Shown: positions 70-32,896 of the stretch, one piece after another
Position numbering within the stretch: the first letter of the stretch is position 1
Layout of the letters: the number at the start of each line of letters is the position of its first letter
NCBI GenBank assembly: GCA_048884945.1
Contig: JBHLQJ010000002.1
Coordinates: forward strand, 1-42,406
Direction: 5' to 3'
From: Candidatus Thorarchaeota archaeon
Lineage (GTDB): Archaea > Asgardarchaeota > Thorarchaeia > Thorarchaeales > Thorarchaeaceae
Length of the DNA stretch: 42,406 bases
Translations under genes and position numbers: made by a program
Notes under the pieces: generated by a model
What the model was told of the DNA's origin: nothing
The model's input: only the letters and a program-made list of their open reading frames with translations
Databases searched by the model: none

Positions 70-141
70 CAAATACATGGTGTCTAGTTGTGCTTTCAAC
101 TTACAAATGCACCATGTAAATTTTCTCATTCTGTGTGGTGG

Positions 142-148
142 TTATATA
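142..148 (+). promoter_or_regulatory. candidate TATA box for the roadblock/GTPase operon
   Basis: TTATATA lies about 53 nt upstream of the TTG start at 201. A purine-rich SD-like GGAGCTGAGGA sits at 189-199. Confidence 0.3.
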
Positions 149-200
149 GTTACGATATGGATTCTACATTGAACCCAACCGTTGGTCCGGAGCTGAGGAC

Positions 201-1148
201 TTGAGCGATGAATTGACTGAAACCCTTCAGAACATTAAGACCATTACCGGCGTTGAGAATGTGGTCCTAATTCAAAAAGATGGGCTTCCTGTGGCAAGCG
301 CAGGAGTATGGTTTAGTAAAGATGAGGTATTTGCTGTAGCGTCCTCTACCTGTGCAATCTTTGGTGTAGCCAAACTCATACATGGTGATTTTAAGTACCT
401 TCTAATGGAATCCGATACATCCAAGGTTTTCCTTGCTTCATTACCAAATGACCCAGACTATTTCTTAACAGTGACAACCGCGCCTCGTGTTAATCTAGCA
501 GCATTATTCATTGAGATGAAAGACAGTCTCTCCAGACTGTCTTTCCTTCTTAGACAGCATGTTGATGGAAGACTTCCTCCACTTCGATCGTACAGCCTTG
601 ATGAAACTCAAAAGGTACTTCGTGGATTCGCTGTAGCCGAAGGTCGCGGTACGAGCTATGGTCTCTCACGATCTATGATTTCACTCGATCGATCCCAAGC
701 ACTTAGTCTTAGAGCTCTCCTACGTCAAGTACATGACTGTATCCCTAACATCGGGTCGGTATTCCTATCCTTAAGTGGCGGAGTCCGAGTTTCATTAGAA
801 GGGTTCACCAATGACCGACTAGCTGCAATGTCTTTCGCACTTCATGACGCATCAGAACGAGTAGTACGGACACTTCGGAATAGCTCACTTCAAACTGTCC
901 TATGCGAAACGGATGAAACACGCCACTTCATCTATGCTGTTCCAAATGGTGTGTTTAGTTTATGGGTGGATAAAGATAGTCAGAAGCTTGGTCTGATGAG
1001 GCTTTTATTGAAACATTATATTGATGAAATAAGACGGGTCTTAGCCGCTGCAGCATCAGTGAAACCTGCAGTACCTGATGATTTGAAAGAGCTGCTTTTG
1101 TCAGGAGGATCTGACAGCGGTTTGATGTTAACGAGGAGAGAACCATGA
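201..1148 (+). CDS. tandem Roadblock/LC7 (MglB-like) domain protein
   Basis: 315 aa with a TTG start. The N-terminal ~115 aa (ITGVENVVLIQKDGLPVASAG...FLTVTTAPRVNLAALFIEM) and residues ~165-290 (IPNIGSVFLSLSGGVRVSLEG...VFSLWVDKDSQKLGLMRLL) both fit the Roadblock/LC7 pattern. Its stop overlaps the next start (ATGA). Confidence 0.7.
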   Translation: MSDELTETLQNIKTITGVENVVLIQKDGLPVASAGVWFSKDEVFAVASSTCAIFGVAKLIHGDFKYLLMESDTSKVFLASLPNDPDYFLTVTTAPRVNLAALFIEMKDSLSRLSFLLRQHVDGRLPPLRSYSLDETQKVLRGFAVAEGRGTSYGLSRSMISLDRSQALSLRALLRQVHDCIPNIGSVFLSLSGGVRVSLEGFTNDRLAAMSFALHDASERVVRTLRNSSLQTVLCETDETRHFIYAVPNGVFSLWVDKDSQKLGLMRLLLKHYIDEIRRVLAAAASVKPAVPDDLKELLLSGGSDSGLMLTRREP

Positions 1149-2065
1149 CATATTCAATCATGAAACTAATTGAGCTGATGGATGATCAATTTCCACTCCT
1201 GTTAAACACATTATTAGAACGTATACCAGTAATTGTAGCAGGTGAGGATATCGAGTTAGTTGATGATATCACAGAAAGTCTGACCACTCTATGTGCCCAT
1301 CGACACAAACTGGTATTTTGGCGTGATTTCACATCTGAATCAGAGATTCTAGCAGTATGGGAAGAAGAAAAACACAATCACGAAGTCAGCAGAACTATTG
1401 TATGCGGTCTATCAGGAAATCTTCGACTCGCCATTGATAGAATGTCACATTATGCAGGCTGGATTCTTGCAGTGCCATTAGGTTTTACAGTACTAGGAGT
1501 GCAGGTAACTGAGAATACACTTCAAGATGTTACTACTCACATTCTTAAAAATTCAGGTAACTGCGGAATTTTAAGAGTTAGTTCGCCTTCATCTATAACC
1601 TTCTCACTTGTCAGACCTACTAATAGTAGTCTTGAAGTTGAGAAGAAAATTGTAAACAAAATTCTGGTTCGAAAGAAACAATCGCTAGAACGGATTAGGC
1701 GTCTTCTTACGAAATCACTCCGTGGTCTTAATGTATCAAACCATATTCTTACAGCAGTTCTCAAACTTGATGATGAGTCTGAGAACCTCACGCAGGATGT
1801 TTTCGAGGAGGAAATTAATAATTATGTTCACGCAGCGCGTAGAGCAGTTACCTTGTTATCGCGTATTCGATTGGCAAGGGAGCTCGGAGCATCTTCTACT
1901 TTAACGGAAAGAAATCTCTATGAAGCAATCGGATGGGATGGAGGAGAACTACCTGATTTGATTCAATTCATTAGAGCTGAGTGGCATGAAGATTTTTCTG
2001 ATTGTGTGAAGAGCGGAGCCTTGTCGGGTCTAGGAGCATGGGTAGACAGTATGTGGGGAACATGA
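1145..2065 (+). CDS. hypothetical protein, middle gene of the roadblock-GTPase operon
   Basis: 306-aa ORF. ATG overlaps the upstream stop, with GAGGAGAG SD at 1133-1140. It has no P-loop or NKxD motif. I recognise no family by eye. Confidence 0.6.
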   Translation: MTYSIMKLIELMDDQFPLLLNTLLERIPVIVAGEDIELVDDITESLTTLCAHRHKLVFWRDFTSESEILAVWEEEKHNHEVSRTIVCGLSGNLRLAIDRMSHYAGWILAVPLGFTVLGVQVTENTLQDVTTHILKNSGNCGILRVSSPSSITFSLVRPTNSSLEVEKKIVNKILVRKKQSLERIRRLLTKSLRGLNVSNHILTAVLKLDDESENLTQDVFEEEINNYVHAARRAVTLLSRIRLARELGASSTLTERNLYEAIGWDGGELPDLIQFIRAEWHEDFSDCVKSGALSGLGAWVDSMWGT

Positions 2066-2079
2066 CTGGAGGTTAATGA

Positions 2080-2661
2080 ATGATAATCGACTATGGGAAT
2101 CGCACAGTGGGACTCAAAATAGTCTTTTTTGGACCTGCAATGAGTGGAAAAACAACTTCGATTCGATGGTTATTTTCAACACTAGACTACGCAGAGAAAT
2201 TGACTTCAATAGAAAACACTGTGGGACGAACGATGTTTTGTGACTTTGGTACTATACCTTTTTCATTGAGTAACAGCTGGACAATAAATGCGCATATATG
2301 GTCTGCTACAGGTCAAGATTTCTACAGATCAACACGAGAGGTAGTATTAGTTGGAGCTGATGGAGTGATTTTTGTTGCAGACTCTCAAAAGCCTCTTCTA
2401 GATGAGAATCTTGCAAGCTGGAACGAGCTAATGTCAATGATTGAGGAGGAAGAACGACCTCTTCCATTAATTGTGTGTCTTAACAAACAAGATCTTCCAA
2501 ACGCAATCCAGGAAGAACAACTCAGAATACATTTGAGAATACCGTCATCTGTACCCATCTTTAGAAGTGTGGCACGGGAAGGTCATAATATCATGGAATC
2601 TTTCCAGTATCTTTTCCAAAACGCTATGCGTGCAAGCATTCTTGCTCAGCCAATATCATGA
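2080..2661 (+). CDS. MglA-like Ras-superfamily small GTPase
   Basis: G1 is GPAMSGKT, G3 is the non-canonical SATGQ (compare MglA TVPGQ), and G4 is NKQD. It also has GVIFVADSQ and a TMFCDF switch-I-like segment. GGAGG SD at 2069-2073. Confidence 0.85.
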   Translation: MIIDYGNRTVGLKIVFFGPAMSGKTTSIRWLFSTLDYAEKLTSIENTVGRTMFCDFGTIPFSLSNSWTINAHIWSATGQDFYRSTREVVLVGADGVIFVADSQKPLLDENLASWNELMSMIEEEERPLPLIVCLNKQDLPNAIQEEQLRIHLRIPSSVPIFRSVAREGHNIMESFQYLFQNAMRASILAQPIS

Positions 2662-2781
2662 GCGCGGAACTCGTTGCATAGGAATTACCGAGCAAACCAT
2701 TTATACGACTAGATATGACTTTAATCGCAGTTCTAGGCTTGGAGAATATATGGTTCCCCAATATTATTTCTGAGGCTGTTG

Positions 2782-4464
2782 ATGTTGGATTCTATACAAC
2801 GAAAACCAAATTTTGTATTCATTACGGGTGGTGTTCTTTCTGGTATTGGAAAAGGAGTCACTACAGCTTCTATTGCAAAACTATTCCAATTTCGTGGGTT
2901 TGACATTCGAATAATTAAGATTGATCCGTATCTCAACATTGACCCTGGCACATTGAATCCTATCGAACATGGTGAGGTTTTTGTAACAGACCAAACTTGG
3001 AAGTTCCAACCAGTTGATAATTTTAAATTTAGAATATCTGAGATTGACTTGGATTTCGGGACTTATGAACGATTCACTGGATTGGAGGTTCATCCATCTC
3101 AGAACATCACGTCAGGACAGGTATACCTCTCAGTCATCCTTGAAGAGAGAAAAGGTAGTTTTCTTGGACACACAGTTCAAATCATCCCTCACATAACGGA
3201 CAGAATTAAACAAAGAATTTGGGAGGTAGTGAAAAAGCAACCAATACCGGATATTCTTCTTGTAGAAATTGGTGGTACTGTGGGCGACATTGAAGCAATG
3301 CCATTTCTTGAGGCTGTTAGACAACTTGTTCATGAGCTAGGTCGTGGTCGTACTGCTGTTGTACATGTCACCTTAGTACCCTATATCAAAACTGTAGGAG
3401 AGTTCAAGACTAAACCAACCCAGCACAGTGTTCGGACTCTTCAAAGTCTAGGTCTCCAGCCTGATGTCACCATTTGCAGAGCTGAGAGAAAACTCCCAGA
3501 TTCTGTGAAGGAAAAAATCGCTTTGTTCTGTAATGTTCCAAAAGAACGTGTCATTTCGAACCCAGATATTCCTGTAGTTTACCAACTTCCACTTTTATTT
3601 GAGGATGAAAATCTTGGAAATATACTTGTTGAATACTTTGGGATGGAATCAAGAAAGCCCGATATAGAATCTTGGTCTAAAATAATCCGTGCCTTTGACG
3701 AAGCATCTGAAACAGTAACAATTGCAATGCCCGGGAAATATACCACACTTGGCGACTCCTACAAGAGTATCAATCAAGCGCTAGCAGATGCTGCAGCTGC
3801 CTGTGGCGCTAAAGTTGAGATAAAATGGATTGAAACGGAGGAGCGGAGTACTGAAGAAGGTTTCACTAGTGATCTATCAGATGTAGATGGGGTGCTTCTA
3901 ACTCCCGGTTTCGGGGAACGTGGTGTTGAAGGTATGATTTGTGCTGCTGCAATCGCCTTGAAATCCAATATTCCTCTCTTGGGCATCTGCTATGGTGCTC
4001 AACTCTCTACGGTTGCATTTGCTAGAGTTGTTATGGGTTGGAAAGGAGCTCATACAACAGAAGTAGACATTGATAGTCTATATCCTGTTGTCGATTTGAT
4101 GGATGAACAGAAGCTTACAGAAGATAAGGGTGGTACAATGCGTCTTGGAAGTCATGATGTTTACATTATAGAAGGCACTATATTACACAAAATCTATGGC
4201 ACAGACAAGGTCCGTGAGCGATTCCGTCATAGGTATCATTTGATTGAACGTTATCTGACCAAGATGCGCGAAAAAGGCCTGAGGATATCAGCTTTTGACT
4301 CCACAAAGAAAATAATCAATGCAATTGAGCTTGCTAATCATCCTTTTTGGATTGGAGTACAATACCATCCAGAGTTCAGGTCTCGACCTGATAATCCTCA
4401 TCCTCTTTACTTGGGTCTAATAAGGGCCGCCATTGAATACAAAAAGCTGAGAGTGAAGAAATAG
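2782..4464 (+). CDS. pyrG: CTP synthase
   Basis: FITGGVLSGIGKG, EIGGTVGDIEAMPF, KTKPTQHSV, GATase LGICYGAQL and RFRHRYHL motifs. ATG at 2782 is preferred over the TTG at 2779. Confidence 0.95.
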   Translation: MLDSIQRKPNFVFITGGVLSGIGKGVTTASIAKLFQFRGFDIRIIKIDPYLNIDPGTLNPIEHGEVFVTDQTWKFQPVDNFKFRISEIDLDFGTYERFTGLEVHPSQNITSGQVYLSVILEERKGSFLGHTVQIIPHITDRIKQRIWEVVKKQPIPDILLVEIGGTVGDIEAMPFLEAVRQLVHELGRGRTAVVHVTLVPYIKTVGEFKTKPTQHSVRTLQSLGLQPDVTICRAERKLPDSVKEKIALFCNVPKERVISNPDIPVVYQLPLLFEDENLGNILVEYFGMESRKPDIESWSKIIRAFDEASETVTIAMPGKYTTLGDSYKSINQALADAAAACGAKVEIKWIETEERSTEEGFTSDLSDVDGVLLTPGFGERGVEGMICAAAIALKSNIPLLGICYGAQLSTVAFARVVMGWKGAHTTEVDIDSLYPVVDLMDEQKLTEDKGGTMRLGSHDVYIIEGTILHKIYGTDKVRERFRHRYHLIERYLTKMREKGLRISAFDSTKKIINAIELANHPFWIGVQYHPEFRSRPDNPHPLYLGLIRAAIEYKKLRVKK

Positions 4465-5627
4465 TGGAAAGAACTCTCGATAAACTACTATCAAGATTGG
4501 TTGAAGAAATTGAGCACATCGAGGTAACAAGAGAAGGATTTGGGGAAGTTCTCAGAAATATCAGAGACCAAATCGATTTGAGTAGATTTCCAAGAATCGC
4601 AATAAATACTATTGATAAACAGCTATATACAAAGATAGAGCCTACTAGTCTATCAGGTCTTCGAATAGCTGGTATAGATGGAGGTTTAGTCCGAAAACGC
4701 TTCAGGTCAATGGATTTAGTTTTAACAAGGGGTGTTGCGGTTGTATTTCAATTTGGTGCAGAAGAAGGTCCCACTGTTGATTTCTATCCTGATGCTTTTC
4801 CTGAACCAAAGATTAGTCCATTACTTCTGACATTATCTGCGATAGAGCTAGAACAGCTCGCCTCACTAGAACGGATTGCAGCAGAACTCAGAGTTGCTTT
4901 GTCAATTCTTGAGGAATACCATACAGATTTGATTCTTCTCGATGGATCGTTGTTTTATCACCCTCGAGACCGTCCCTCAGCTGGATCTATCGTTTATGAG
5001 AAGTTTCAAGAGATTCTATCATTGTATAAACAACTCTATCACAAAGCTCGGAAAAAAGGTACAACTCTAGTAGGTATAGTCAAAGACAGTAAATCAACAC
5101 GGGTCGCATCTATAATGGGGGAGATACTCCCACACATTGTTCGAAAACCAGCCATCTTTGAGATGATGCAAGGTGTTGATTATAGATGGCTACTCAAGAT
5201 ATCTAGAGACTGTGATTTACTTGATACATTCCTTGAACAAGGAGAGCGATCTTTTGTCTTCCGATACTCGTCAGAACTGTTTCATAATACAAACTCAATA
5301 AGCGACATTTCTGCGAACTGGGCATCTTCAATCTGGGTCACATATCTGAAAACAGCAAGAGATGATTTGCCAATAAGAGTAGAGTTCCTTTCAGCTGGAG
5401 ATGATGAAACAATCACTGAGAGATTAGACAAAGCATTGTCAGCAATACTTCCACTTTCATCACAGCATCCTGAATATGGTATTCCTACTCCAATTCTGGA
5501 AGCTGACACTCGTGCAAAAATTACTGCAAATGAAACTCGTTTAATTATTGACCGGCTAATGGCACTTTCTGGGCTTACTTACATGACCCTTGAAAAAAGA
5601 CGTTCAAGAAACCCGTTTGGAGGTTAA
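4464..5627 (+). CDS. nurA: NurA 5'-3' nuclease
   Basis: IAGIDGG and LILLDGSL NurA-type motifs, 387 aa. The GTG start overlaps the pyrG stop. It lies immediately upstream of herA. Confidence 0.75.
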   Translation: MERTLDKLLSRLVEEIEHIEVTREGFGEVLRNIRDQIDLSRFPRIAINTIDKQLYTKIEPTSLSGLRIAGIDGGLVRKRFRSMDLVLTRGVAVVFQFGAEEGPTVDFYPDAFPEPKISPLLLTLSAIELEQLASLERIAAELRVALSILEEYHTDLILLDGSLFYHPRDRPSAGSIVYEKFQEILSLYKQLYHKARKKGTTLVGIVKDSKSTRVASIMGEILPHIVRKPAIFEMMQGVDYRWLLKISRDCDLLDTFLEQGERSFVFRYSSELFHNTNSISDISANWASSIWVTYLKTARDDLPIRVEFLSAGDDETITERLDKALSAILPLSSQHPEYGIPTPILEADTRAKITANETRLIIDRLMALSGLTYMTLEKRRSRNPFGG

Positions 5628-5630
5628 CAA

Positions 5631-7145
5631 ATGACTGAATTCTCACCAACTTCGCGACTAGGAACTGTGGTATCAACCGACTCTGGTCCCAATGTTATGG
5701 AGTTCTCCTTTGTCCTTGAAGGTGGCTCTCGTGAGATCATTGCCCGACGTGGCGAGTTTGTATCAGTTGTCACTGATGAAGGAACTGTGATTGCAAGAGT
5801 CCAAAATCTTGTTCGTACAAACCGATATTATCAACATGCTGAAGCAGTTCGCGAATACCAGTCAAGAGGTGAACCACTAAGATCGATATTTCCAACAGAC
5901 CGCTGGCAATATACAGTTGCAACGGTTCGTGTATTAGGTCTATGGAGTAATGGTCACACAATTAGACCATATTTTGCAGTGTCTCCTGGAGCTGTTGTTA
6001 GACGTGTCGATGAGGATGTTCTTGCCTCATTTCTGAAGCTTGATTTGGAAAAAGGTCTTTATCTTGGCCAATTATCATATCAGAACCTTGCGTTTTCGCC
6101 GTCCATAGACCGGCTACTATCTAAACATCTAGCAATTCTTGCAATGAGTGGTGCAGGTAAATCTTACTTTGTATCTGTTCTTATAGAAGAGTTACTATCT
6201 CGTCCAAAAGAAAGGGGTCGTCTATCTGTTGTTGTCATTGACGTACACGGAGAGTACACCTATCTGAAAGACATCACTCCAGAAGTTCTCGGGCTTTCCA
6301 AGGGTCAGTTCGAAGTTGAGCATATAAGAGGATCATACTTTCAAATTCCTGTTCAGATGCTTTCTGCTGAAGCGATTGGAGCTCTTGTTTCCGACATGAG
6401 CTCGATTCAGATTCGAGACCTACGTCGAGTTGTATCTGAGATAAAAGACACAATGAAAGAAGGATATACCTTACCAGATATTGTTGAGTATGTACAACAC
6501 GATGAAAAAATAAGTAAAAACACACGTGAAGCTCTTATCGGCTGGCTGATTAATCTAGATGAAACGGGTCTCTTTGGAAAAGAAGCTGTCCCAAATATCA
6601 AAAATATTGTGAAACCCGGCAGAATTACACTAGTCGACCTCAGCGATTTCATCAGTCTCAAGAAGAAGCAAATAATCGTTTCTTATTTGGCCAACGAACT
6701 ACTTCATTTACGGAGACGCGAAGCAATTCCGCCTTTCCTGCTGGTTCTTGAAGAAGCTCATCAGTTTTGTCCCGAAAGTAGACATGAGCTTGCACTCCCC
6801 AAAAGTCGCATAGAAACTATTGCACGAGAAGGGCGGAAGTTCTATGCACTTCTTTGCCTAATATCACAGAGACCTGTGAAACTCTCAACTACTGTTCTAA
6901 GTCAGTGTAGCAATCAAGCAATTTTTAGATGCACGAATCCTTATGATTTAGAACACATTGGAAAATCAAGTGAAGGAATTGATCGATCATCACTTGATGC
7001 GATTACGACTTTAGAAATTGGAGAGTCGCTCTTTGTTGGTGAAACCGTGTCAGTTCCCACATTTGTTAAGATACGACAAAGAAAATACGAGCCAGCTGGC
7101 ATATTCAAGAGTCTTTCTGAGGCTGTGAAGAAATCTGATAAATGA
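5631..7145 (+). CDS. herA: HerA hexameric DNA helicase/translocase
   Basis: Walker A is AMSGAGKS and Walker B is LLVLEEAHQF. It has an N-terminal barrel-like region. GGAGG SD at 5617-5621. Confidence 0.85.
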   Translation: MTEFSPTSRLGTVVSTDSGPNVMEFSFVLEGGSREIIARRGEFVSVVTDEGTVIARVQNLVRTNRYYQHAEAVREYQSRGEPLRSIFPTDRWQYTVATVRVLGLWSNGHTIRPYFAVSPGAVVRRVDEDVLASFLKLDLEKGLYLGQLSYQNLAFSPSIDRLLSKHLAILAMSGAGKSYFVSVLIEELLSRPKERGRLSVVVIDVHGEYTYLKDITPEVLGLSKGQFEVEHIRGSYFQIPVQMLSAEAIGALVSDMSSIQIRDLRRVVSEIKDTMKEGYTLPDIVEYVQHDEKISKNTREALIGWLINLDETGLFGKEAVPNIKNIVKPGRITLVDLSDFISLKKKQIIVSYLANELLHLRRREAIPPFLLVLEEAHQFCPESRHELALPKSRIETIAREGRKFYALLCLISQRPVKLSTTVLSQCSNQAIFRCTNPYDLEHIGKSSEGIDRSSLDAITTLEIGESLFVGETVSVPTFVKIRQRKYEPAGIFKSLSEAVKKSDK

Positions 7146-7228: not shown

Positions 7229-7783
7229 ATGTCAGATGAAAATCTAAACGAGATTAAACAACTTATCGATTCAATGCAATCAAATCTTGTTGAGCTTTTT
7301 GATCAGCTCCGTGAGCTGCGTAATCATTTGAATCTCGTTACCAATAAAGTTTCAGAAACCTCCCCTTCAATTCTACCTCTCTTCTCAGAAATCAAAACAC
7401 CAAATTCAGAGGCTGACTCAACTCCTAACTCAGAAGATGAGGAAACTTCTATTCTTGTTCCGGAAGAGGATGTACCCACAGATATCATGATAGATGATGA
7501 CTCGGAAGCTGGAAACAACGCCAAGGTAAATCGAGTTCTCGATCCAATCTCCCATGAACTACGCACTGGAGAGGCCCCTGCAGAGATAATTTATGAATAC
7601 CTCCAAGCTGCAAGAGAATATCTAATTGATGACGATAAAGAACCTCAAAAAGGGAAAGTTGCGAGAGACATGGATATAGTTCTTAATTTCTTGAAAGCTC
7701 GCGGAAAAAGAACAATTCGTCCTGATGAACGTGATAATATTCTAAAAAGAATTCGTCGTTGGAAAGCTCATCTAGCTGTCTGA
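7229..7783 (+). CDS. hypothetical protein with acidic centre
   Basis: 184 aa. N-terminal heptad-like helix, a D/E/S-rich centre (SEADSTPNSEDEETSILVPEEDVPTDIMIDDDSE) and a basic C-terminal helical region. No recognisable family. Confidence 0.5.
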   Translation: MSDENLNEIKQLIDSMQSNLVELFDQLRELRNHLNLVTNKVSETSPSILPLFSEIKTPNSEADSTPNSEDEETSILVPEEDVPTDIMIDDDSEAGNNAKVNRVLDPISHELRTGEAPAEIIYEYLQAAREYLIDDDKEPQKGKVARDMDIVLNFLKARGKRTIRPDERDNILKRIRRWKAHLAV

Positions 7784-7834
7784 TTTAGCTCTCCAACGGA
7801 CTTTCCACATGATTGTTGCGATTGATTGAAAAAT

Positions 7835-8077
7835 CTACTCTAAGTCTATGATGATGCGTTTGACCTTGGTCCATGAAATCTTCTTGAGACCGTGCTGGCC
7901 TGGTTCATACCTACACTCCAGTAAATCGGCATCTTTCAAGATTTTAATTTGGGCGCTGGCATTGGCTTCGGTTCCGCCGAGGTGTCTAGCCACTCGTGTC
8001 ACGTCTTTTTCTCCCTGAAGCAAAATCTTCAGTACCTTTAGCCGAGTTCCTGATGAAAGAGCTCGTCCTATTCGCAA
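7835..8077 (-). CDS. ArsR-family winged-helix transcription regulator
   Basis: ALSSGTRLKVLKILLQGEKDVTRVARHLGGTEANASAQIKILKDADLL fits the ArsR HTH pattern. The start is uncertain: TTG at 8077, and the frame stays open upstream to about 8119 without an ATG or GTG. Confidence 0.65.
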   Translation of the reverse strand: MRIGRALSSGTRLKVLKILLQGEKDVTRVARHLGGTEANASAQIKILKDADLLECRYEPGQHGLKKISWTKVKRIIIDLE

Positions 8078-8270
8078 AATAGCATCGTCGTTGTTGATTT
8101 CAAGTGTTTCGGACAGTTGTTACACCTCGAATAAGTATTATAACATTGCTCAAGTATTGCTTTATTATAGTTGTTGTTTGAGGATGACCAAAACTGTCAA
8201 CTGTACAAGTTTGAACCAACAAATAGGTTCAATACCTTTTCCTATCTCATAAGAATGAGTGCTGAGCCCA

Positions 8271-10292
8271 ATGGGCGACGATGAAGTATTCATCATAGGT
8301 TTCGACATATTGCCTTCATATAGTGCTTCCTCAAAGAAAGCACCGAAATTTGCTTGCGTGATTGCTAGAAATGAGATGGTCCTAAATGAGTTTCCCGAAC
8401 TATCTCGAGGCGCATTATTAAAACTGGTCCGTGAAGTCGTTCCTAAATGGCTGTGCACAGATAACATCTTTGAGATAGTTCCTGATACAAAATCTCTCTT
8501 TCAACTTGTAGATAAAATCCCAGCTGAAACCAAAATTGTCCAAGTAACCGGAATCCCACCACACCAAACGCCTCTCAAAATATTAGCAAAACGTCATGGT
8601 CTAATCTCCAGAGGTAAACCAAGTCCTCTGGAATCAGCTCGTATTGCAGCACAACTAGCGTCAAGAGGTATTGGTTACTCACTCGAATGCTTTGGAGAAC
8701 AGACTGAAATCAAAGTGACTCGAGCACGGAAACCTGGTCGTGGTGGGCAGAGTGCAAACAGATATCGTCGCAGAGTCCACTCAGAGATACAACAGATGAC
8801 CCGCTTCATAGAGTCCCAGTTGAAGGCTGCTGAAATCGAATACGACCTCGATACTCGCATATCTGATTTTGGTTATGCGAGTGCAAGAATTGTAACATAT
8901 GCCCCATTACCAGCAATTCGTAGTCTTGTTGAATCTAAACGTGGTGGGGATTTCAATGTAATCATCTCTCCTGTTCGAAAGAGAGTAGAATTTCTCTCAC
9001 TCGAACCCCGTCCTGCAGTTACAGACTTAAAACCAAAGTATTTCATTCTGGGCATTGACCCTGGAACAACAGCAGCCTATTGCTTATTGTCATTGGACGG
9101 GAAAATACTTGCATTGAGAAGTAAAAAGGGACTTACAAGAGCGGATCTTATCAGAGAGGTCTACGAGGATGGCATTCCTGCAATGGTTGCTTCGGATGTC
9201 CCACAGGCTCCTCACTTTGTTGATAAGATTACTAGTACGGTGAATGCCACCCTATTCACCCCCAAGAAACCAATTGCGGTCGCAGACAAACAGGAACTAG
9301 CTCGTGAATATGGTGGTGAAATAAAAATTCGAAATGCTCATGAACGTGATGCTATGACAGCAGCAATATTTGCGTTCAAGAGCCTTCTTCCCAAATTTCA
9401 ACAAATTGACAAAATAGTTCGTGAAGATAAACTCTCAGTTGACCGTAACCATCTCAAGGCATTAGTGATAAAGGGTGCTTCAATCAATGAAGCTTTAGCT
9501 AAGATAGAGAGTGAGGAATCAGAACCTGTAGAAAGTGTTCCTGAACGACCACAAGTCAAAGATGAACCTTTGACACAGGAACGTTTTGATGTAATAAAAT
9601 CAAAAATGGAGCATTTAGAATCTGAAAACAGACTCCTTGCAGAGAAGATTGATGACCTTAAACGGTTCGTAGAATATCTAAAGTTTAGAGAGAGCGAACT
9701 TAAAGAGAGTCTCGAAATAGTAAACCGCGAGAACCATTGGAAAATCAAACGAGACCGTGAAGTGGAGAAAATCAAGTCCACATTGAAGAAAACACAGCGG
9801 GAAACACACTCACTAAGAAGACAAGTAGATACCTTGAGCAAGCGTCTCGAACGTCTGAAGGGAGTCAAACGTCTAGAAATGCGCGGAGATATGCTAGCTG
9901 TAAAAACAATTCCTCACTTTACCCGCGAAAGTATTGAAGAATTCATGAAGAAAGTTGGTTTGAAGCGTGGTGATGTTGTCCTCTTTGAAGACGCCTCAGG
10001 TGGAGGTCCACAGACAGCAGGAATACTCATTGATCGAGAGATACGAGCTGTGGTTGTAGACACACCTCTCTCACATCTTCCACAAGATGTACTGATTAAA
10101 GCACTTATTCCAGTCATCAATGCCAAAGAAGTAGAGCTTCAACGAGTAGATGAATTTGCATTTATTAGTCGTGTGAAGTTTAATCAACAACTTCAAACAT
10201 TCATGCGAAATGTACGTGAACAAGCTAGACAAAAGGGAGAGGAGCAGCTAGTAGAGTTAGTGGAACGATATCGTCGCGAGATTGAGCGATAA
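8271..10292 (+). CDS. DUF460/COG2433-like protein: RNase H-fold (RuvC/YqgF-like) domain plus long coiled coil
   Basis: FILGIDPGTTAAYCLLSLDGKILAL is an RNase H-like first strand. An ERDAMTAA acidic motif follows, and the C-terminal ~200 aa are heptad-rich. ATG at 8271; an alternative GTG is at 8259. Confidence 0.6.
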   Translation: MGDDEVFIIGFDILPSYSASSKKAPKFACVIARNEMVLNEFPELSRGALLKLVREVVPKWLCTDNIFEIVPDTKSLFQLVDKIPAETKIVQVTGIPPHQTPLKILAKRHGLISRGKPSPLESARIAAQLASRGIGYSLECFGEQTEIKVTRARKPGRGGQSANRYRRRVHSEIQQMTRFIESQLKAAEIEYDLDTRISDFGYASARIVTYAPLPAIRSLVESKRGGDFNVIISPVRKRVEFLSLEPRPAVTDLKPKYFILGIDPGTTAAYCLLSLDGKILALRSKKGLTRADLIREVYEDGIPAMVASDVPQAPHFVDKITSTVNATLFTPKKPIAVADKQELAREYGGEIKIRNAHERDAMTAAIFAFKSLLPKFQQIDKIVREDKLSVDRNHLKALVIKGASINEALAKIESEESEPVESVPERPQVKDEPLTQERFDVIKSKMEHLESENRLLAEKIDDLKRFVEYLKFRESELKESLEIVNRENHWKIKRDREVEKIKSTLKKTQRETHSLRRQVDTLSKRLERLKGVKRLEMRGDMLAVKTIPHFTRESIEEFMKKVGLKRGDVVLFEDASGGGPQTAGILIDREIRAVVVDTPLSHLPQDVLIKALIPVINAKEVELQRVDEFAFISRVKFNQQLQTFMRNVREQARQKGEEQLVELVERYRREIER

Positions 10293-10708: not shown

Positions 10709-11695
10709 ATGACACTCTACTGTCTAGGAATCGAAGGAACTGCACACTCATTTGGTGCTGGCATCGTTACAAGTGAAGGTAAGGTTCTATCAAATGAATG
10801 GGACATGCTTAAACCCGCTCAAGGCGGTATCCATCCACGCGAGGCTAGTCGTCATCATTCAGAGTTGGGTCCAAAAATAATCAAAGATGCGGTTCAGAAA
10901 GCTGGAATTGATTTTCAAGAAATAGATCTTATTGCCTTCTCTCGAGGTCCTGGATTGGGTCCATGTCTCAGAACTACTGCCACCATTGCCAGAACTCTCT
11001 CTCTCAAATTGAAGATTCCACTTGTTGATGTCAACCACTGCGTTGCTCATATTGAGATTGGCTGTCTAGAATCCAACTTCAATGATCCAGTAACAGTCTA
11101 TGTTTCTGGTGGGAACACACAAGTCATCGCTTTTGCAGGTGGTCGATTCAGGACTTTCGGTGAAACTCTAGACATTGCAATTGGGAATATGTTGGATGTT
11201 CTTGGTCGAGAGTTAGGAATGGATTTCCCTGGTGGCCCTATCATAGAAAAGCATGCTAAGAACGGCCAGGAATATCACAATCTTCCTTACTCAGTAAAAG
11301 GGATGGACCTGAGCTACTCAGGTCTGCTTACTGCTGCAAAAAAGCTCTATTCAGAAGGTGTTTCTATACCAGATATCTGTTATAGTGTACAAGAAACCTC
11401 TTTCGGGATGCTTGCAGAGGTAGCGGAGCGTGCAATAGCACACACCAAGAAGAGAGAGCTGCTCCTGACTGGTGGAGTTGCTCGTAATAGTCGACTTACT
11501 GAGATATTATCAGGTGTAGCAAAAAGACATGAAGCTAAGTTCCATCGAGTATCTCCTTCCTTAGCTGGTGATCAAGGTGCAATGATTGCTTGGAATGGAA
11601 TTCTTCAGTATAATACAGGTCATCAAATCAAAGTAGAGAATTCTCACGTGCTACCAAAATGGCGCACTGACGACCAAGATATTTTATGGAGGTAG
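10709..11695 (+). CDS. kae1: Kae1, tRNA N6-adenosine threonylcarbamoyltransferase (KEOPS)
   Basis: CLGIEGTAHSFGAGIV, HCVAHIE, YVSGGNTQV and LTGGVARN motifs. Confidence 0.9.
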   Translation: MTLYCLGIEGTAHSFGAGIVTSEGKVLSNEWDMLKPAQGGIHPREASRHHSELGPKIIKDAVQKAGIDFQEIDLIAFSRGPGLGPCLRTTATIARTLSLKLKIPLVDVNHCVAHIEIGCLESNFNDPVTVYVSGGNTQVIAFAGGRFRTFGETLDIAIGNMLDVLGRELGMDFPGGPIIEKHAKNGQEYHNLPYSVKGMDLSYSGLLTAAKKLYSEGVSIPDICYSVQETSFGMLAEVAERAIAHTKKRELLLTGGVARNSRLTEILSGVAKRHEAKFHRVSPSLAGDQGAMIAWNGILQYNTGHQIKVENSHVLPKWRTDDQDILWR

Positions 11696-11700
11696 ATAAG

Positions 11701-12327
11701 ATGAAACAGATGATAGCAAGAGGTGCAGAGTCAGTCATTTACAAGATTGAGCAATGGGGGCTCCCATTTGTACTAAAATGGCGCCAAGGCAAATCCTACC
11801 TCTTGAGAGAAATAGACTCACAGCTCAGAAAATTACGAACCAGTCGAGAATGCAAGATGTTGACAATATCACGAGCACTTGGAGTACCTACACCAGCTGT
11901 TTATTCTGTCGACCTTGAAAACTATACAATTCTAATGGATTTCATAGCAGGTGTCCAATTCAAACAACTAGCACCACAGCTCTCCCGAACTGATTTAGTT
12001 TCTCATTGTCATAGATTTGGCAAGCTAATTGCTTTACTTCATGAAGGTAATGTCGTTCATGGGGATCCAACTACAAGTAATATCATTGTAGATGAAAAAT
12101 CGCGTCTGTGGATTGTTGATTTTGGCCTGTCGGAGATGAATGCTACAGTTGAGATGAAGGGCGTTGACCTACATCTAATTCAACGCGCACTAGAAACCAC
12201 TCACTGGGACATTCAAGAGGATATGTTAAATGCTACTCTTGAGGGCTATGTTGACATACTAAAAAATGACGCAGAACCAACACTAGCAAGGATGAGTGAA
12301 ATCCGAGAACGTGGCAGATATCATTGA
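11701..12327 (+). CDS. bud32: Bud32/PRPK atypical kinase (KEOPS)
   Basis: IARGAESVIYK glycine-loop analogue, HGDPTTSNII catalytic loop and IVDFGLS. ATG at 11701 follows GGAGG at 11688-11692. The track start at 11686 overlaps kae1. Confidence 0.8.
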   Translation: MKQMIARGAESVIYKIEQWGLPFVLKWRQGKSYLLREIDSQLRKLRTSRECKMLTISRALGVPTPAVYSVDLENYTILMDFIAGVQFKQLAPQLSRTDLVSHCHRFGKLIALLHEGNVVHGDPTTSNIIVDEKSRLWIVDFGLSEMNATVEMKGVDLHLIQRALETTHWDIQEDMLNATLEGYVDILKNDAEPTLARMSEIRERGRYH

Positions 12328-14565: not shown

Positions 14566-16020
14566 TTAGTTTGATGCAGCGAGTTCATCGCATATCGTCT
14601 GAGCTTTTGAATGTGATTGATCAGCCATTTCTTGTGTAATGAACCCTCGCTGGACTGCTTTCTTTAGAAGATGCTGATCTATGATGCGGGGATCTTCAGT
14701 GATTGGTGCTTTAACGACATCAATTTCAAGGTCAACATATCGTATTCTTCCGGGACTATTTCCATTGCTTGGATAGACCTCAACACCCGTGTTAATGTTG
14801 ACATAAGTGCCTTTAAGACTACCATCGCGGGAGTAATAGTTAGTCAGCAGAGAGAATGCTCCTGGAATCACTTGGGTCAGTGCATAGTCGCCCTCACTAC
14901 TCACTACATCAACACCCTCATACGAATCCTGATTCATCTTCAGTTTCCTATTTGTGTGTCTAAATTGTCTTCTAATAACGAATCCTTTAGAATTAGTTTC
15001 AGCAATTCTTCCTCTAGCAAGTACAATATTCCTGCCATCAAGTTTCACATGTTCTATGTTGATTGAATCATCAACACGAGGCAAGTCGCGTGAAATCACC
15101 TTTTCAAGTTTGGAAACGACATAACCTCGGTCCTCAGGACGATCTTCAATAATCATCTCTGCAAGGTCGACAAGTGACGCATACCCAGCACTTTTGTAGA
15201 AGTGGTGCCGTTTTAATGTAGGTTTGATTTTTGCTCGTGTCTTATCGAGTGTGTCCTTCACCTCCGAAGGAAACTCAATATCTGCATTACTAGTGCCCTC
15301 AAACAAGATACCTGTTGATTCCAAGTCATTATACTTATTGAATACTTGTTGAGCTGTATCAAGAAGATCATCAACCTCATTACGCAGCTCTTCTTCAGTA
15401 AGTTTCCCCGCAGCAGTTCTCCATAATATTCCCCAGTTCTCTGCATGTTCTCTGATTTTACGACCAAGAATCAATAGATTTCTCCGAGAATCTTGATCCT
15501 TAATCTTTGTACTAAGACGTACAACAGGCTCAGGAAGGAGGACAGCTGCTTGCCCGGGAATGGTAATACTTGAGGACAGAACTGGAGCTTTCCGTCCATA
15601 GTCATGAGCTCGTATCTGAACCATAATCTGTTGTCCTCTTTGGAGTCCTCTGTCCGGTAATAATCCCGATATCGTTCCTAAGTCAATCTTTGTTTGTCCT
15701 GTTCTTTCATCTTTTCCGAGAACGATTCCTCTATAGATAGAACTCTTAGCAACTCTAGGTGTTCGAGTAATTACACCACCTAATCTTCGCCGCAACACTT
15801 CCGTTAGGCGACTCAGAACAGATTCAAACGCAATTGCTACAACACCTTGAAGGTCACTTCTGTCCCATATGTCCACATCTGGAATTTCACTACGATATGG
15901 GAGACCAAACCTTCTTGCCACTTCTGGAGTAGGCTGCACTATATCAAAATGATTTTGCAGCATAATCTGCGTCAACGACTGCGAATATATTCCTCGTATC
16001 CTCGCTTTTATCATGAACAA
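14566..16020 (-). CDS. FAU-1 / RNase E/G-like RNA-binding protein (C-terminal DUF402-like)
   Basis: The N-terminus MIKARIRGIYSQSLTQIMLQNHFDIVQPT resembles archaeal FAU-1. RYVDLEIDVV near the C-terminus. 484 aa. Confidence 0.65.
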   Translation of the reverse strand: MFMIKARIRGIYSQSLTQIMLQNHFDIVQPTPEVARRFGLPYRSEIPDVDIWDRSDLQGVVAIAFESVLSRLTEVLRRRLGGVITRTPRVAKSSIYRGIVLGKDERTGQTKIDLGTISGLLPDRGLQRGQQIMVQIRAHDYGRKAPVLSSSITIPGQAAVLLPEPVVRLSTKIKDQDSRRNLLILGRKIREHAENWGILWRTAAGKLTEEELRNEVDDLLDTAQQVFNKYNDLESTGILFEGTSNADIEFPSEVKDTLDKTRAKIKPTLKRHHFYKSAGYASLVDLAEMIIEDRPEDRGYVVSKLEKVISRDLPRVDDSINIEHVKLDGRNIVLARGRIAETNSKGFVIRRQFRHTNRKLKMNQDSYEGVDVVSSEGDYALTQVIPGAFSLLTNYYSRDGSLKGTYVNINTGVEVYPSNGNSPGRIRYVDLEIDVVKAPITEDPRIIDQHLLKKAVQRGFITQEMADQSHSKAQTICDELAASN

Positions 16021-21899: not shown

Positions 21900-23522
21900 T
21901 TGACATCCTCGATTCGACGAAATGTGTTAAAATTACTAATTGAGTCAGGGCTCCAAGTAGCACCTGAGGCACTCGAGTATATCCTAAATCTAGAAACTCC
22001 CATTGAAACAATCAAGTCAATTCTTATGGCTAACAAAACTGGAAAGCACCCACCTGTTCTTTCACGTTCTTACGTTGAATCACTTGTCGAAGGAAAAATC
22101 TTTGAAACATCTCAAAGAGAAGAGCCTGAAGCAAGTGAAGACGAACCTGAAAGAGAAGAGATTGAAACCCCACTACCAAGCTCAGTTATGGATATTGAAA
22201 CTGGGTGGTCTTTTCAAATAATAAAAAACCCCGAAGCGTCACAGGTAGGTTCTGGGGGAACTGTCGAGGACTTCCTAGCACTTTTCATAGATCGTTTTAA
22301 TCGTATAAAACGAATATACATGAGTCGAATTGATACCCAAAATGCAGTATCCCCGCAGATAGCCAAATTGAGAAAAGAATCTGCAAAACAAAGAAGGGCA
22401 ATGACCCGAGAGGGCATACGCACGACAAATCGCACGACCCAGACAGTTCTTGGAATTGTAAAGAATAAGAGTATCTCCCAATCACGAAATGTAATCATTG
22501 AACTTGAGGATATAGACGACTCGATTATCTGCATCATTCCTGCAACTCGAGAAGGCTTGAAGGGCCAACAGCTTTCCGAAAAAGCCAACTCCTTACTTCT
22601 TGATGAGATTACCTGTATCTCTGGCTTCGTTGATGAGAATGCGAGAATGATTGCGGATGATGTAATTTTTCCCGATATTCCAACAGCTCGAGATGTAGGC
22701 AGAGCAAGAAGAGATGTCTACGCAGTTTTTATTTCAGACACCCACTGTGGTAGTAAAGAATTCTTAGAAGATGAGTTTGATCGGTTTATTGATTGGATGA
22801 ATGGGCGAAACATTGATGATGAAGACAAAGCACTGGTGAAACAAGTCAGGTATCTCTTTGTTGCTGGTGATATGATAGATGGAATCAGTGTCTACCCCAC
22901 ACAGAGAAATGACTTGAAAATTGAGAGCATTTATGAACAATACGCGCTCTTTGCGAGCAAGCTAAGTAAACTTCCTAATTTGGTCAAGATTTTCTGTATC
23001 CCTGGGAACCATGATGCTAATCGGCAAGCTCTTCCAAAACCCCCTATAGCGGAAGAATTTGCACAGCCATTATACAAGCTAGGAAATCGAATAACAATGT
23101 TAGGCGACCCGAGTCAAGTGGTTGTTGAGGGAGTAAATGTTCTCTTGACTCATGGGGACAGCCTTGATGACCTCGTTACAAACATACCTGGTGCATCATA
23201 TACGGAACCTGCAACACCAATGATAGAACTTCTCAAGAAACGTCATCTTGCTCCTATGTATGGGGGGAAGACCGAGCTTGCGCCACTTCATAGGGATTGG
23301 ATGGTGATTGACACACCTCCAGATATAGTGCATTTTGGTCATTGCCATCACAATGCTGTTGACAACTATCGTGGCGTCCAAATCATTAATTCTGGAACAT
23401 TTCAATCCCAGACTGACTTTATGCGTAAACAAGGAGTGGTGCCAACGCCTGGTATTGTCACACTATTGAATCTCAGAACCGGTGCTCCTGATGTGAGATT
23501 CTTCTATGATATGTCTTCATAG
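21900..23522 (+). CDS. dp1: DNA polymerase D (PolD) small subunit DP1
   Basis: Calcineurin-like phosphoesterase motifs VFISDTHCGS, VAGDMIDG, GNHD and GHCHH. An acidic linker follows an N-terminal helical domain. TTG start. Confidence 0.85.
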   Translation: MTSSIRRNVLKLLIESGLQVAPEALEYILNLETPIETIKSILMANKTGKHPPVLSRSYVESLVEGKIFETSQREEPEASEDEPEREEIETPLPSSVMDIETGWSFQIIKNPEASQVGSGGTVEDFLALFIDRFNRIKRIYMSRIDTQNAVSPQIAKLRKESAKQRRAMTREGIRTTNRTTQTVLGIVKNKSISQSRNVIIELEDIDDSIICIIPATREGLKGQQLSEKANSLLLDEITCISGFVDENARMIADDVIFPDIPTARDVGRARRDVYAVFISDTHCGSKEFLEDEFDRFIDWMNGRNIDDEDKALVKQVRYLFVAGDMIDGISVYPTQRNDLKIESIYEQYALFASKLSKLPNLVKIFCIPGNHDANRQALPKPPIAEEFAQPLYKLGNRITMLGDPSQVVVEGVNVLLTHGDSLDDLVTNIPGASYTEPATPMIELLKKRHLAPMYGGKTELAPLHRDWMVIDTPPDIVHFGHCHHNAVDNYRGVQIINSGTFQSQTDFMRKQGVVPTPGIVTLLNLRTGAPDVRFFYDMSS

Positions 23523-23542: not shown

Positions 23543-24790
23543 TTAATCAAGAATTTCTTGTGCCACCTTACTGAGACGAATATCATCATCCAGAATGACA
23601 CCAATCTGTTTCTTGCTAACAGCTAATTTGATCTTTTTCGTTCTCCCATATCGGCCTTTTGAAATCACTGTAGTATTAATCAACCCCAACATATCTAATT
23701 CAGAGATTAAATCGGATACACGCCGTTGGGTCAGCGTGTCTAATGAAAGAGACTTGGCAATCTCTGAGTAGATATTATAGCACTCACCAGTGAAGATATC
23801 TCTTTGACCCTTACTTGCCAATACATAGACTGCAAAAAGAACAGCTTTTGACTGCATTGGAAGCGTTTTCACTGTTTCAGTTATAGTATCACGTTCAATG
23901 ACCTTTTGTGCTTCTCGTACATGGTCTTGGGTGACTGTATTGTCACCTCTTCTCTCAGCAAGTTCTCCTGCAGTTCTTAGTAGATCGAGTGCTCTGCGAG
24001 CATCTCCATGCTCTTGTGCTGCTAATGCTCCAACAAGATTGATTACTCCCTCATCACCTATGGCGTTCTGATTGAAAGCAAGTTCAACCCGTTGTTTTAG
24101 AATGCCTTTCAGTTCCACAGCATTATAAGGTGAGAAAATAACCTCTTCTTCTCCAAGGGTTGACAAAACTCTAGGGTCAAGCATCTCTTTGAATTTCAAA
24201 TCATTACTAATGCCTATAATCGATATTCTACTATTCTCCAGCTCCCCGTTCATTCTTGTCAACCCGTAGAGAATATCGTTACCTTGTCCAACGTCACGTT
24301 TCAATAAACTATCAACTTCATCAAGTACAACTGTAAGTATGTTTGTTTCGGAATCCAACTTGTTCTTGAGAACATCCCGAATCTCATCGGTTGGAAGACC
24401 TGTGAAAGGCACTTCAGTCCCATCTGGCATTGTTGCATCTATCTGGTCACAAAGTCGTTTCAGAACTCGATAGTTTGTGCCCACTATCCTACAGTTAACA
24501 AAAGCGGTCAAAGGCGCATTTATCCCACTCTCTTTTGCCTTTTTCACCAACATATCCAGTACATATCTTGCCACTACAGTTTTCCCAGTTCCAGTCTTCC
24601 CGTAGCACAAAATGTTTGATGGTGGAGCACCCCTGAGTGCTGGTCCTAAGATTGACCCAATTCGACTCATTTGGTCATCTCTATATGGCAGGTTCTGTGG
24701 TACGTAAGTAGGTCTAAGAGCTGTTCTATCTCTGAAAATGGCTTGACCTTGCAAGAATTTATCAAATAACTTATCGAGCGGTTTCTCCAT
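23543..24790 (-). CDS. cdc6: Orc1/Cdc6 replication initiator
   Basis: Walker A is CYGKTGTGKT and Walker B is VVLDEVD. Sensor region GDARRALDLLR. C-terminal winged helix. 415 aa. Confidence 0.9.
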   Translation of the reverse strand: MEKPLDKLFDKFLQGQAIFRDRTALRPTYVPQNLPYRDDQMSRIGSILGPALRGAPPSNILCYGKTGTGKTVVARYVLDMLVKKAKESGINAPLTAFVNCRIVGTNYRVLKRLCDQIDATMPDGTEVPFTGLPTDEIRDVLKNKLDSETNILTVVLDEVDSLLKRDVGQGNDILYGLTRMNGELENSRISIIGISNDLKFKEMLDPRVLSTLGEEEVIFSPYNAVELKGILKQRVELAFNQNAIGDEGVINLVGALAAQEHGDARRALDLLRTAGELAERRGDNTVTQDHVREAQKVIERDTITETVKTLPMQSKAVLFAVYVLASKGQRDIFTGECYNIYSEIAKSLSLDTLTQRRVSDLISELDMLGLINTTVISKGRYGRTKKIKLAVSKKQIGVILDDDIRLSKVAQEILD

Positions 24791-32895: not shown

Positions 32896-32896
32896 G

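Follow-up and report, generated by a model that had tools for sequence, protein, structure and literature searches.

Results

Three coupled genes and a predicted promoter

We analysed a window of 42,406 nucleotides from a Candidatus Thorarchaeota archaeon (the whole of contig JBHLQJ010000002.1 of GenBank assembly GCA_048884945.1, positions 1 to 42,406 of the forward strand) and concentrated on a triad of genes near its start. Homologues in the databases carry the name Candidatus Thorarchaeota, in agreement with an Asgard origin of the window. Gene 1 (201-1148, 315 amino acids, TTG start) encodes a tandem Roadblock/LC7 (MglB-like) protein, gene 2 (1145-2065, 306 amino acids) a DENN/d-DENN-like protein and gene 3 (2080-2661, 193 amino acids) an MglA-type (Group-1-like) small GTPase. 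All three lie on the + strand, as do the features of the triad described below. A first-pass annotation made from the sequence alone had reported three coupled open reading frames (ORFs) here, and these are borne out at the coordinates just given. We propose, with a probability of about 0.6, that 133-2661 is the Thorarchaeota copy of an Asgard-wide operon whose double Roadblock protein, DENN-like protein and MglA-type GTPase form a self-contained switch.

Gene 1 and gene 2 overlap by 4 nucleotides in the sequence ATGA at 1145-1148, and a gap of 14 nucleotides, with GGAGG ahead of the gene 3 ATG, separates gene 2 from gene 3. A candidate promoter element resembling a transcription factor B recognition element with a TATA box, GTGTGGTGGTTATATAG at 133..149, lies about 52 nucleotides upstream of the gene 1 start. 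It emerged from an alignment of the upstream regions of 10 diverged Thorarchaeota loci, in which the block GTGTGGTG[AG]TTA[TA]ATAG (133-149 in the window) is nearly invariant and its TTA.ATA invariant; the sequence flanking the block has no alignable similarity among the same loci. The TTG start of gene 1 is kept in all 10. The upstream gene, which encodes an HD-domain protein, stops near position 59, and positions 60-71 form an oligo-T run. Given that the promoter block and the TTG start are conserved and that the HD-domain gene ends where it does, with an oligo-T run after it, the three genes appear to be a unit with its own promoter, and the overlapping start and stop codons, together with the constant order and spacing described in the next section, further argue for a single operon. 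Judged from the sequence, the triad is an operon with its own promoter. A scan for sigma-70 promoters and intrinsic terminators gave matches at chance level, and these models do not apply to archaea.

Conservation of the triad across Asgard archaea

A synteny scan using one genome per species found the triad in 78 Thorarchaeota species-level loci, at 54-99% amino acid identity. The order and spacing of the Roadblock tandem, gene 2 and the GTPase were the same in every Thorarchaeota locus with enough DNA. Such identities at constant order and spacing over 78 loci argue that the three ORFs are real genes and not chance occurrences.

The same order is found in Lokiarchaeota and Helarchaeota, where the flanking genes are unrelated, and in a fourth, divergent and AT-rich deep clade from metagenomes (a sample of three short loci), whose GTPase carries GRTLFFDF and SATGQ. 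The three-gene arrangement is thus syntenic well beyond the contig on which the first-pass annotation had noticed it. In every locus with enough DNA the Roadblock gene lies two genes upstream of the GTPase. All lineages examined keep the middle gene in its place between its two partners, and start and stop codons overlap.

Gene 3 encodes an MglA-type GTPase

A phmmer search of gene 3 against the PDB sequences placed MglA of Thermus thermophilus at the top (105 bits, E 3e-29) and MglA of Myxococcus xanthus second (103 bits, E 1.3e-28), followed at a distance by Rab7 (42.6 bits, E 5e-10) and Arf (about 40 bits). Identity to the two MglA proteins is 31-33% over the full length. In Pfam, gene 3 matches only the general Arf, Roc and Ras families, its Gtr1_RagA score of 21.9 bits falling below the cut-off of 22. 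The 193-residue protein consists of the GTPase domain only, with no C-terminal Roadblock domain.

The motifs quoted by the first-pass annotation, SATGQ, GVIFVADSQ (residues 95-103) and NKQDLPNA (residues 135-142), are all present in gene 3, and conservation was assessed over its 120 closest homologues. The G1 P-loop GPAMSGKTT (residues 18-26, 2131..2157) is kept as GPAMSGKT in 108 of them. G2 and strand β2, comprising R50-T51 and then M-F-C-D-F (2227..2247), are kept as VGRTMFCDF in 114; this stretch aligns with R53-T54-L-F-F-D-F of MglA. G3 reads SATGQ (residues 75-79, 2302..2316), lacking the Asp and retaining the catalytic Gln79, and WSATGQDFY occurs in 117. The G4 motif NKQD (residues 135-138, 2482..2493) is found in 119.

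According to Wuichet and Sogaard-Andersen, Group 1 MglA proteins have an intrinsic Arg beside the G2 Thr, lack the canonical Asp in G3 (TVPGQ) and keep NKxD in its normal form, while Groups 2-5 carry TT and GTPGQ, a deviant G4 being a Group 2 trait. The G3 of gene 3 lacks the Asp and has the Gln, with A-T at positions 2-3 where the Group 1 consensus has V-P. R50-T51, the hydrophobic β2 stretch, Q79, the Asp-less G3 and NKQD are kept in triad GTPases of four deep Asgard clades. GK[ST] and G3 lie 51-52 residues apart in the triad GTPases and 54 apart in MglA, as against 38-48 in ARF1, RAB7A, RagA and HRAS; an extended segment from G1 to G2/G3 is described in the literature as an insertion of the bacterial type.

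In a bootstrapped neighbour-joining tree, for which the ARF1, RAB7A and RagA reference sequences were checked against the PDB first, the triad GTPases of the four Asgard clades formed one clade (100% bootstrap) that was sister to bacterial MglA (81%), with ARF1, RagA, RAB7A and HRAS falling outside. Being distance-based and built on a small sample, the tree is treated as supportive only. It places the GTPase next to MglA and not in an unrelated family, in keeping with the MglA assignment of the first-pass annotation, which the PDB matches, the RT in G2 and the Asp-less G3 also uphold. On its sequence, gene 3 is clearly an MglA-type, Group-1-like small GTPase.

Gene 1 encodes a tandem Roadblock protein

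Two stretches of gene 1 match Pfam Robl_LC7 (40.7 bits, against a cut-off of 23), and the profile of its family matches solved Asgard Roadblock proteins with both halves, residues 3-110 against 7f8m and residues 165-282 against 9jue. The Roadblock assignment therefore holds in profile searches. Relatives of gene 1 are named by the Joint Genome Institute as 'predicted regulator of Ras-like GTPase activity (Roadblock/LC7/MglB family)'.

An AlphaFold model from 13 sequences had moderate confidence, with a predicted local distance difference test (pLDDT) value of 67.5 and a predicted template modelling score (pTM) of 0.63. It contains the α-β-β-α-β-β-β-α unit twice, at residues 3-121 and 164-285, with a low-confidence linker between them. 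A Foldseek search of the PDB with this model gave 103 matches at E<=1e-3, among them Thor-RB (7f8m), MK-D1 Roadblock3 (9jue), MglB of M. xanthus and T. thermophilus, and LAMTOR2/3, to which the target-normalised template modelling (TM) scores were 0.75-0.86 (0.75-0.82 for MglB alone); the Streptomyces Roadblock structure 3kye was also among the best fold matches. The pTM suggests a defined arrangement of the two modelled domains. The Foldseek matches that span both domains (MON1/CCZ1 and BLOC-3) have root-mean-square deviations of 16-18 Å.

Roadblock domain 1 (residues 1-121, 201..563) is delimited by the model topology at residues 3-121 and by a phmmer match to 7f8m (E 5e-5, residues 3-108). 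It contains the canonical Asp-Gly (DG) motif of the family in 'QKDGLPVAS', of which D27, G28 and P30 are invariant in the Thor-, Loki- and Helarchaeota sequences. Roadblock domain 2 (residues 164-285, 690..1055) is more degenerate, with SGG at the position of the DG motif; it is supported by the model topology and by family-profile matches to 9jue (E 2e-3, residues 165-282) and 7yh1 (E 0.03). Beyond it lies an acidic/hydrophobic C-terminal helix, VPDDLKELLL (residues 291-300, 1071..1100), modelled as helical at residues 293-300. L295, L298, L299 and L308 are conserved, Loki- and Helarchaeota sequences included; the helix as a whole is conserved among Thorarchaeota sequences and partly so in those two lineages. 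In M. xanthus the MglB Ct-helix allosterically promotes nucleotide exchange, and the position of residues 291-300 resembles that of the Ct-helix, a likeness that we offer as a lead only.

Gene 1 is thus confirmed as a tandem Roadblock/LC7 protein. The first-pass annotation had proposed two Roadblock domains in one chain forming a potential pseudo-dimer; the two domains are supported by Pfam, the family profile, the model and Foldseek, and they may pack as an MglB-like pseudo-dimer.

Gene 2 encodes a DENN-like protein

The middle gene had been taken for an orphan encoding an unknown component. It belongs instead to an Asgard family of proteins of about 300 amino acids with a DENN/d-DENN-like fold. 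A scan of 1.84 billion representative proteins returned 64 clusters at 50% identity, 42 of them at E<=1e-10, with members diverging down to 20-35% identity; the named members come from Thor-, Hel- and Lokiarchaeota. The gene 2 sequence itself gave no significant match in Pfam, NCBIfam or the PDB sequences.

The AlphaFold model of gene 2 is confident (pLDDT 87.7, pTM 0.84). Residues 1-155 (1145..1609) are modelled as a DENN-core-like α/β domain with strands at 29-33, 54-58, 84-88, 106-111, 141-147 and 150-155 and alternating helices, and residues 164-306 (1634..2062) as an all-helical, d-DENN-like region in which helices 164-192 and 209-246 form a long hairpin, with a helix at 199-205 between them and three short helices after it. 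The model shows no longin (u-DENN) domain at the N-terminus, the chain beginning with the DENN-like core; the Roadblock fold, which is related to longin, comes from the separate upstream gene 1. Conserved residues in the α/β part are R26-x-P28, H52-R53, D61-F62, E75, R83 and G105-W106, and in the helical part E166, E211, A230, R233, E279 and W304. No Walker A motif is present in the family, the β1-α1 loop VAGEDIELV having no conserved Lys or Ser/Thr, and no Walker A or B residue is conserved. We therefore rejected the idea that gene 2 is an active ATPase.

In a Foldseek search of the PDB the top match was 8dhb_J, from the GTPase-activating protein (GAP) complex of FLCN with FNIP2 (E 6.7e-3, probability 0.96), and further matches included C9orf72-SMCR8 entries, DENND10 and DENND1A/B. 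The three highest full-length probabilities (0.96, 0.75 and 0.47) belong to DENN-module proteins; TadA/CpaF, however, reached 0.60. Zhang et al. describe DENN as a five-stranded α/β sandwich with the minimal topology of a P-loop nucleoside triphosphatase (NTPase) and without nucleotide-binding residues, followed by an all-α d-DENN made of hairpins. Given this topology, a mixture of DENN proteins and ATPases in the Foldseek list is as expected of a DENN domain. The Pfam family matched by most relatives of gene 2 was Folliculin_C, with 4 of 55 (best E 4.8e-4), and DENN was matched by one of the 55 (13.1 bits, cut-off 23.4). The Folliculin_C match examined individually, in relative P0252, scored 15.3 bits against a cut-off of 27. 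Both of the sub-threshold matches examined, to Folliculin_C and to DENN, fall in register on the N-terminal β1-α1 element. We conclude that gene 2 encodes a DENN/d-DENN-like protein and that homology to DENN is likely, not proven.

Neighbouring genes and other features of the window

Directly downstream of the triad, at 2779-7145, are genes for CTP synthase (pyrG), NurA and HerA, which are conserved in most Thorarchaeota loci. Nine Thorarchaeota loci with enough DNA keep the triad without downstream pyrG/nurA, and because of their absence there we regard these genes as neighbours and not members of the operon.

Two of the other triad loci have flanks of some interest. In a Lokiarchaeota locus (L079; features at 1-322 and 7360-8903) a second small GTPase, of the Arf/Ras type, lies about 2.7 kb upstream of the triad, and downstream are split EF-2-like genes, comprising a 96-amino-acid GTP_EFTU fragment and a long EF-G-like ORF. 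In a locus of the divergent AT-rich clade (L084; features at 1618-2088 on the - strand and 1228-1602 on the + strand) a small ORF of very hydrophobic sequence comes after the triad, and the opposite strand encodes a 156-amino-acid protein with the look of the V4R/TRAPPC3 type, as judged by eye from its sequence.

Further into the window, a Cdc6/Orc1 gene (23543-24790, - strand) lies next to the gene for the PolD small subunit (21900-23522). The intergenic region upstream of Cdc6/Orc1 holds two adjacent motifs resembling origin recognition boxes (ORB) at 24871-24891, TTCCAGTGGA (exact) and TTCGAGTGGA, and a short repeat, CCTAGGTC..TGGC, occurs on both sides of the polD-small/cdc6 pair, at 21883 and 24930. 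The cumulative GC skew turns at about 14-24 kb. The region upstream of Cdc6/Orc1 may be a replication origin; the number of ORB-like motifs across the whole window, however, is not above chance. A replication gene cluster at 27565-31110 begins with a small protein of the oligonucleotide/oligosaccharide-binding fold with weak RPA3/Ten1-like matches (27565-27963), and continues with tandem PCNA paralogues (27956-28729 and 28915-29670) and the primase small subunit (29722-31110).

Elsewhere, genes for Kae1 (TsaD family) and a Bud32/RIO-like kinase are adjacent and slightly overlapping at 10709-12327, and are followed by genes for ribosomal protein S15 and a DHH-CID-containing protein. A 484-amino-acid protein with RNase E/G-family and DUF402 matches (FAU-1-like) is encoded at 14566-16020 (- strand), beside the switch in gene strand and GC skew. 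Finally, a heterodisulfide-reductase/MvhD-like redox cluster with 4Fe-4S, CCG, FAD/NAD and FlpD domains occupies 32353-39461 and includes a 754-amino-acid protein with a MarR-like helix-turn-helix match and 4Fe-4S domains.

Discussion

The triad and the published Asgard operon

Liu et al. (bioRxiv 10.1101/2020.10.19.343400; Nature 2021) describe an Asgard-wide operon of a Roadblock (LAMTOR1-like) protein, a small GTPase and a DENN protein, and propose it to be folliculin-like, with the role of guanine nucleotide exchange factor (GEF) towards Rab and Rag GTPases. Its composition and distribution agree with those of the triad, which we see in Thor-, Loki- and Helarchaeota, and we infer that the two are the same. 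The Roadblock-GTPase-DENN module is therefore already known. The first-pass annotation had presented the three genes as a complete GTPase switch module in an archaeon, a reading supported in part, but such an operon had already been published for Asgard archaea. There are two differences: Liu et al. label the GTPase 'Rab-like', whereas gene 3 is MglA-group-1-like, and a fused tandem Roadblock architecture goes unmentioned in the text of theirs available to us. The MglA-group-1-like identity of the GTPase, as against 'Rab-like', and the fused Roadblock architecture, a putative pseudo-dimer, appear to be refinements over the literature.

MglA1-type GTPases in Asgard archaea are already on record. 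Tran et al. report that Asgard GTPase genes generally lie outside operons with Roadblock or longin genes, and because such GTPases rarely adjoin regulators the triad is an unusually informative exception. An origin of the longin domain in DENN modules from Roadblock GAPs of the MglB type, which serve MglA-like GTPases, was proposed on structural grounds by Zhang et al. (2012). In later papers DENN domains are counted among the eukaryotic-signature proteins of Asgard archaea, and folds resembling DENN are noted in prokaryotes. No study of the triad by biochemical or structural methods came to light in the searchable literature. The Thorarchaeota MglA/MglB-like pair modelled with AlphaFold 3 by Dinet et al. 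(2026) was considered as a possible match to this locus and is probably different, its Roadblocks being a single-domain dimer.

Comparison with known GTPase systems

The triad shares with MglA/MglB of M. xanthus and T. thermophilus the R-T of G2, the hydrophobic β2 stretch, the catalytic Gln, the Asp-less G3 and the long G1-G2 segment, and its GTPase likewise has a partner with a Roadblock fold. In MglA the protein's own Arg and Gln are the intrinsic catalytic machinery, positioned by MglB, and the R-T and β2 stretch undergoes the β2-screw and contacts MglB. The MglB dimer binds a single MglA asymmetrically (2:1 MglB:MglA), a stoichiometry matched by the two Roadblock units per GTPase in the triad. 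By analogy, a fused and internally diverged Roadblock pair fits this asymmetric mode of binding. The triad differs in that a single chain contains both of its Roadblock units, each now divergent from the other, in that its G3 is [ST][AS]TGQ where that of MglA is TVPGQ, in having a DENN-like gene between the partners, in its archaeal host, and in the absence of RomR/RomX, MglC or a motility context.

The best fold matches of gene 2 are the longin-DENN modules, namely FLCN-FNIP2 (a RagC GAP), C9orf72-SMCR8 (an Arf/Rab GAP), DENND1 (the Rab35 GEF) and DENND10. As in gene 2, an α/β DENN core is followed there by a helical d-DENN, and a longin/Roadblock-type platform is paired with a small GTPase. 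The platform of the triad, however, is a Roadblock tandem from a separate gene and not an N-terminally fused longin, there is one DENN protein and not a DENN heterodimer, and the Arg finger belongs to the client GTPase itself, while in FLCN and SMCR8 it comes from the longin domain. The sequence similarity of the gene 2 family to these proteins also stays under the Pfam thresholds.

Two further systems bring GTPases and Roadblock proteins together. In Ragulator-Rag/Gtr, LAMTOR2/3 heterodimers are good fold matches of gene 1 and, as we propose for the triad, Roadblock platforms scaffold small GTPases; gene 3, however, lacks a C-terminal Roadblock domain, and in the neighbour-joining tree RagA falls outside the clade formed by MglA and the triad GTPases. 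A Rag/Ragulator reading of the triad was rejected on these domain and motif grounds. In actinobacterial conservons (CvnA-D) and Group 3 MglA systems, an MglA-family GTPase is encoded together with a Roadblock protein and an extra conserved protein. The claim that the triad has a component which bacterial systems lack was consequently too strong, CvnB-CvnC-CvnD conservons and Group 3 MglA both having extra conserved partners. The GTPase group (TT, GTPGQ) and the third protein differ from those of the triad, and the conservon has a histidine kinase that is absent beside the triad.

A proposed switch and its alternatives

We propose that the three proteins would form a self-contained GTPase switch. 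The Roadblock tandem would take the place of the MglB dimer, binding the switch/β2 face of one GTP-bound GTPase asymmetrically and bringing R50 and Q79 of that GTPase into position, so that hydrolysis would be stimulated. Docked on the Roadblock platform, the DENN-like protein would complete with it, in trans, a counterpart to the longin-DENN regulators of eukaryotes (FLCN-FNIP, C9orf72-SMCR8, DENND1). Such an assembly might adjust the exchange or the hydrolysis of nucleotide, or it might connect the switch with a target. The identities of the genes, their folds and catalytic motifs, the operon structure with its promoter and the synteny come from the analysis itself; complex formation, GAP/GEF roles and a cellular output we infer. 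Since MglB of M. xanthus can behave both as a GAP and as a GEF on its own, the division of labour within the triad cannot be predicted.

Several observations weigh against the proposed switch. The equation with the operon of Liu et al. rests on composition and distribution and not on accessions; the G3 of gene 3 is SATGQ and not the TVPGQ of MglA Group 1; and the gene 1 model is of moderate confidence only, at the pLDDT of 67.5. For gene 2, there is no Pfam DENN match in the protein itself, the family profile found only spurious ferritin matches among the PDB sequences, and Foldseek gave TM scores of <=0.33, nothing at E<=1e-3, and P-loop/AAA+ ATPases interleaved with the DENN proteins. An hhalign comparison of the family profile with the C-terminal domain of human FLCN (the FLCN sequence being verified against the PDB) was not significant (E 0.28), its sole alignment being the expected β1-α1 element.

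These weaknesses of the DENN assignment lend themselves to an explanation that we consider unlikely, though not negligibly so, namely that gene 2 is a degenerate domain derived from a P-loop NTPase/AAA+ protein with a helical lid, DENN-like by convergence; it would still be a member of the module but have no continuity with DENN. Clamp-loader, RavA, TadA/CpaF and VirB11 ATPases appear in the Foldseek list at similar E-values, DENN itself has the minimal P-loop NTPase topology, the DENN profile matches are under curated thresholds and hhalign was not significant. On the other hand, the top three full-length Foldseek probabilities belong to DENN modules, albeit with TadA/CpaF at 0.60, Folliculin_C is the sole Pfam family that recurs among the relatives and does so in register with the DENN match, the Walker A/B residues are not conserved, and Liu et al. 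independently annotate a DENN protein in such an operon. The same statistical weakness would suit a plain MglA/MglB polarity-type module in which the Roadblock protein is the sole regulator and the middle gene is co-transcribed with an unrelated or merely structural role, since a GTPase with the MglA hallmarks and a Roadblock tandem would already amount to a full MglAB-like pair and MglB of M. xanthus can by itself be GAP and GEF. This we think rather improbable: all lineages examined strictly keep the middle gene, start/stop overlaps included, the proteins that it most resembles in fold regulate small GTPases, and it has invariant surface-type residues (RxP, HR, E75, R83 and GW).

A different division of roles follows from the analogy with FLCN drawn by Liu et al. 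The Roadblock and DENN proteins could be a folliculin/Ragulator-like regulator of GTPases encoded elsewhere (Rag/Gtr-like or Ras/Rab-like), with gene 3 a subunit and not the client, and Asgard genomes are indeed rich in Rag-like and Ras-like GTPases that usually lie away from regulators. The strict one-to-one co-inheritance and tight coupling with gene 3 speak against such outside clients, as do the MglB-contacting β2 stretch and intrinsic catalytic residues that gene 3 keeps, its lack of the Rag/Gtr C-terminal Roadblock and its Gtr1_RagA score under the cut-off, and we regard the idea as doubtful, a little more so than that of a plain MglAB pair. An archaeal conservon (CvnB Roadblock-CvnC-CvnD GTPase) serving as the output of a sensor kinase has in its favour the same order of Roadblock, unknown protein and MglA-family GTPase, and gene 1 counts the Streptomyces Roadblock 3kye among its best matches in fold. 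The conservon reading is essentially refuted by the GTPase motifs and the neighbourhood: gene 3 has RT, SATGQ and NKQD where Group 2 has TT, GTPGQ and a deviant G4, the triad is adjoined by an HD-domain gene upstream and pyrG downstream and by no histidine kinase, and the 306-residue gene 2 protein has a DENN-like fold and matches neither DUF742 nor any other Pfam family.

Evolutionary significance

The self-contained Roadblock-DENN-MglA switch thus remains our preferred reading. A further step, which we take only tentatively and think possible but far from even in its chances, is that the triad encodes a Roadblock-DENN regulator assembled in trans and dedicated to an MglA-type GTPase with an arginine finger of its own, DENN having first stood beside the prokaryotic MglB/MglA switch and later, in eukaryotes, become fused to longin and redirected to Rab, Rag and Arf.

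The operon's existence is published and would not surprise a specialist; the pairing is evolutionarily interesting, not new. Asgard small GTPases are numerous, rarely lie beside their regulators and are hard to pair with them; in the triad, the genome itself puts a GTPase together with a Roadblock platform and a DENN-like partner. It is a compact and tractable system in which to ask how Roadblock/longin platforms and DENN domains act on a GTPase, and it bears on the 2012 proposal that a switch of the MglB/MglA type was ancestral to the eukaryotic folliculin, C9orf72 and DENND regulators. If the regulator is indeed assembled in trans, the triad would represent a surviving stage between MglAB polarity switches of the bacterial type and the eukaryotic folliculin/C9orf72/DENND regulators, and would offer a minimal three-protein system for the mechanism of DENN domains.

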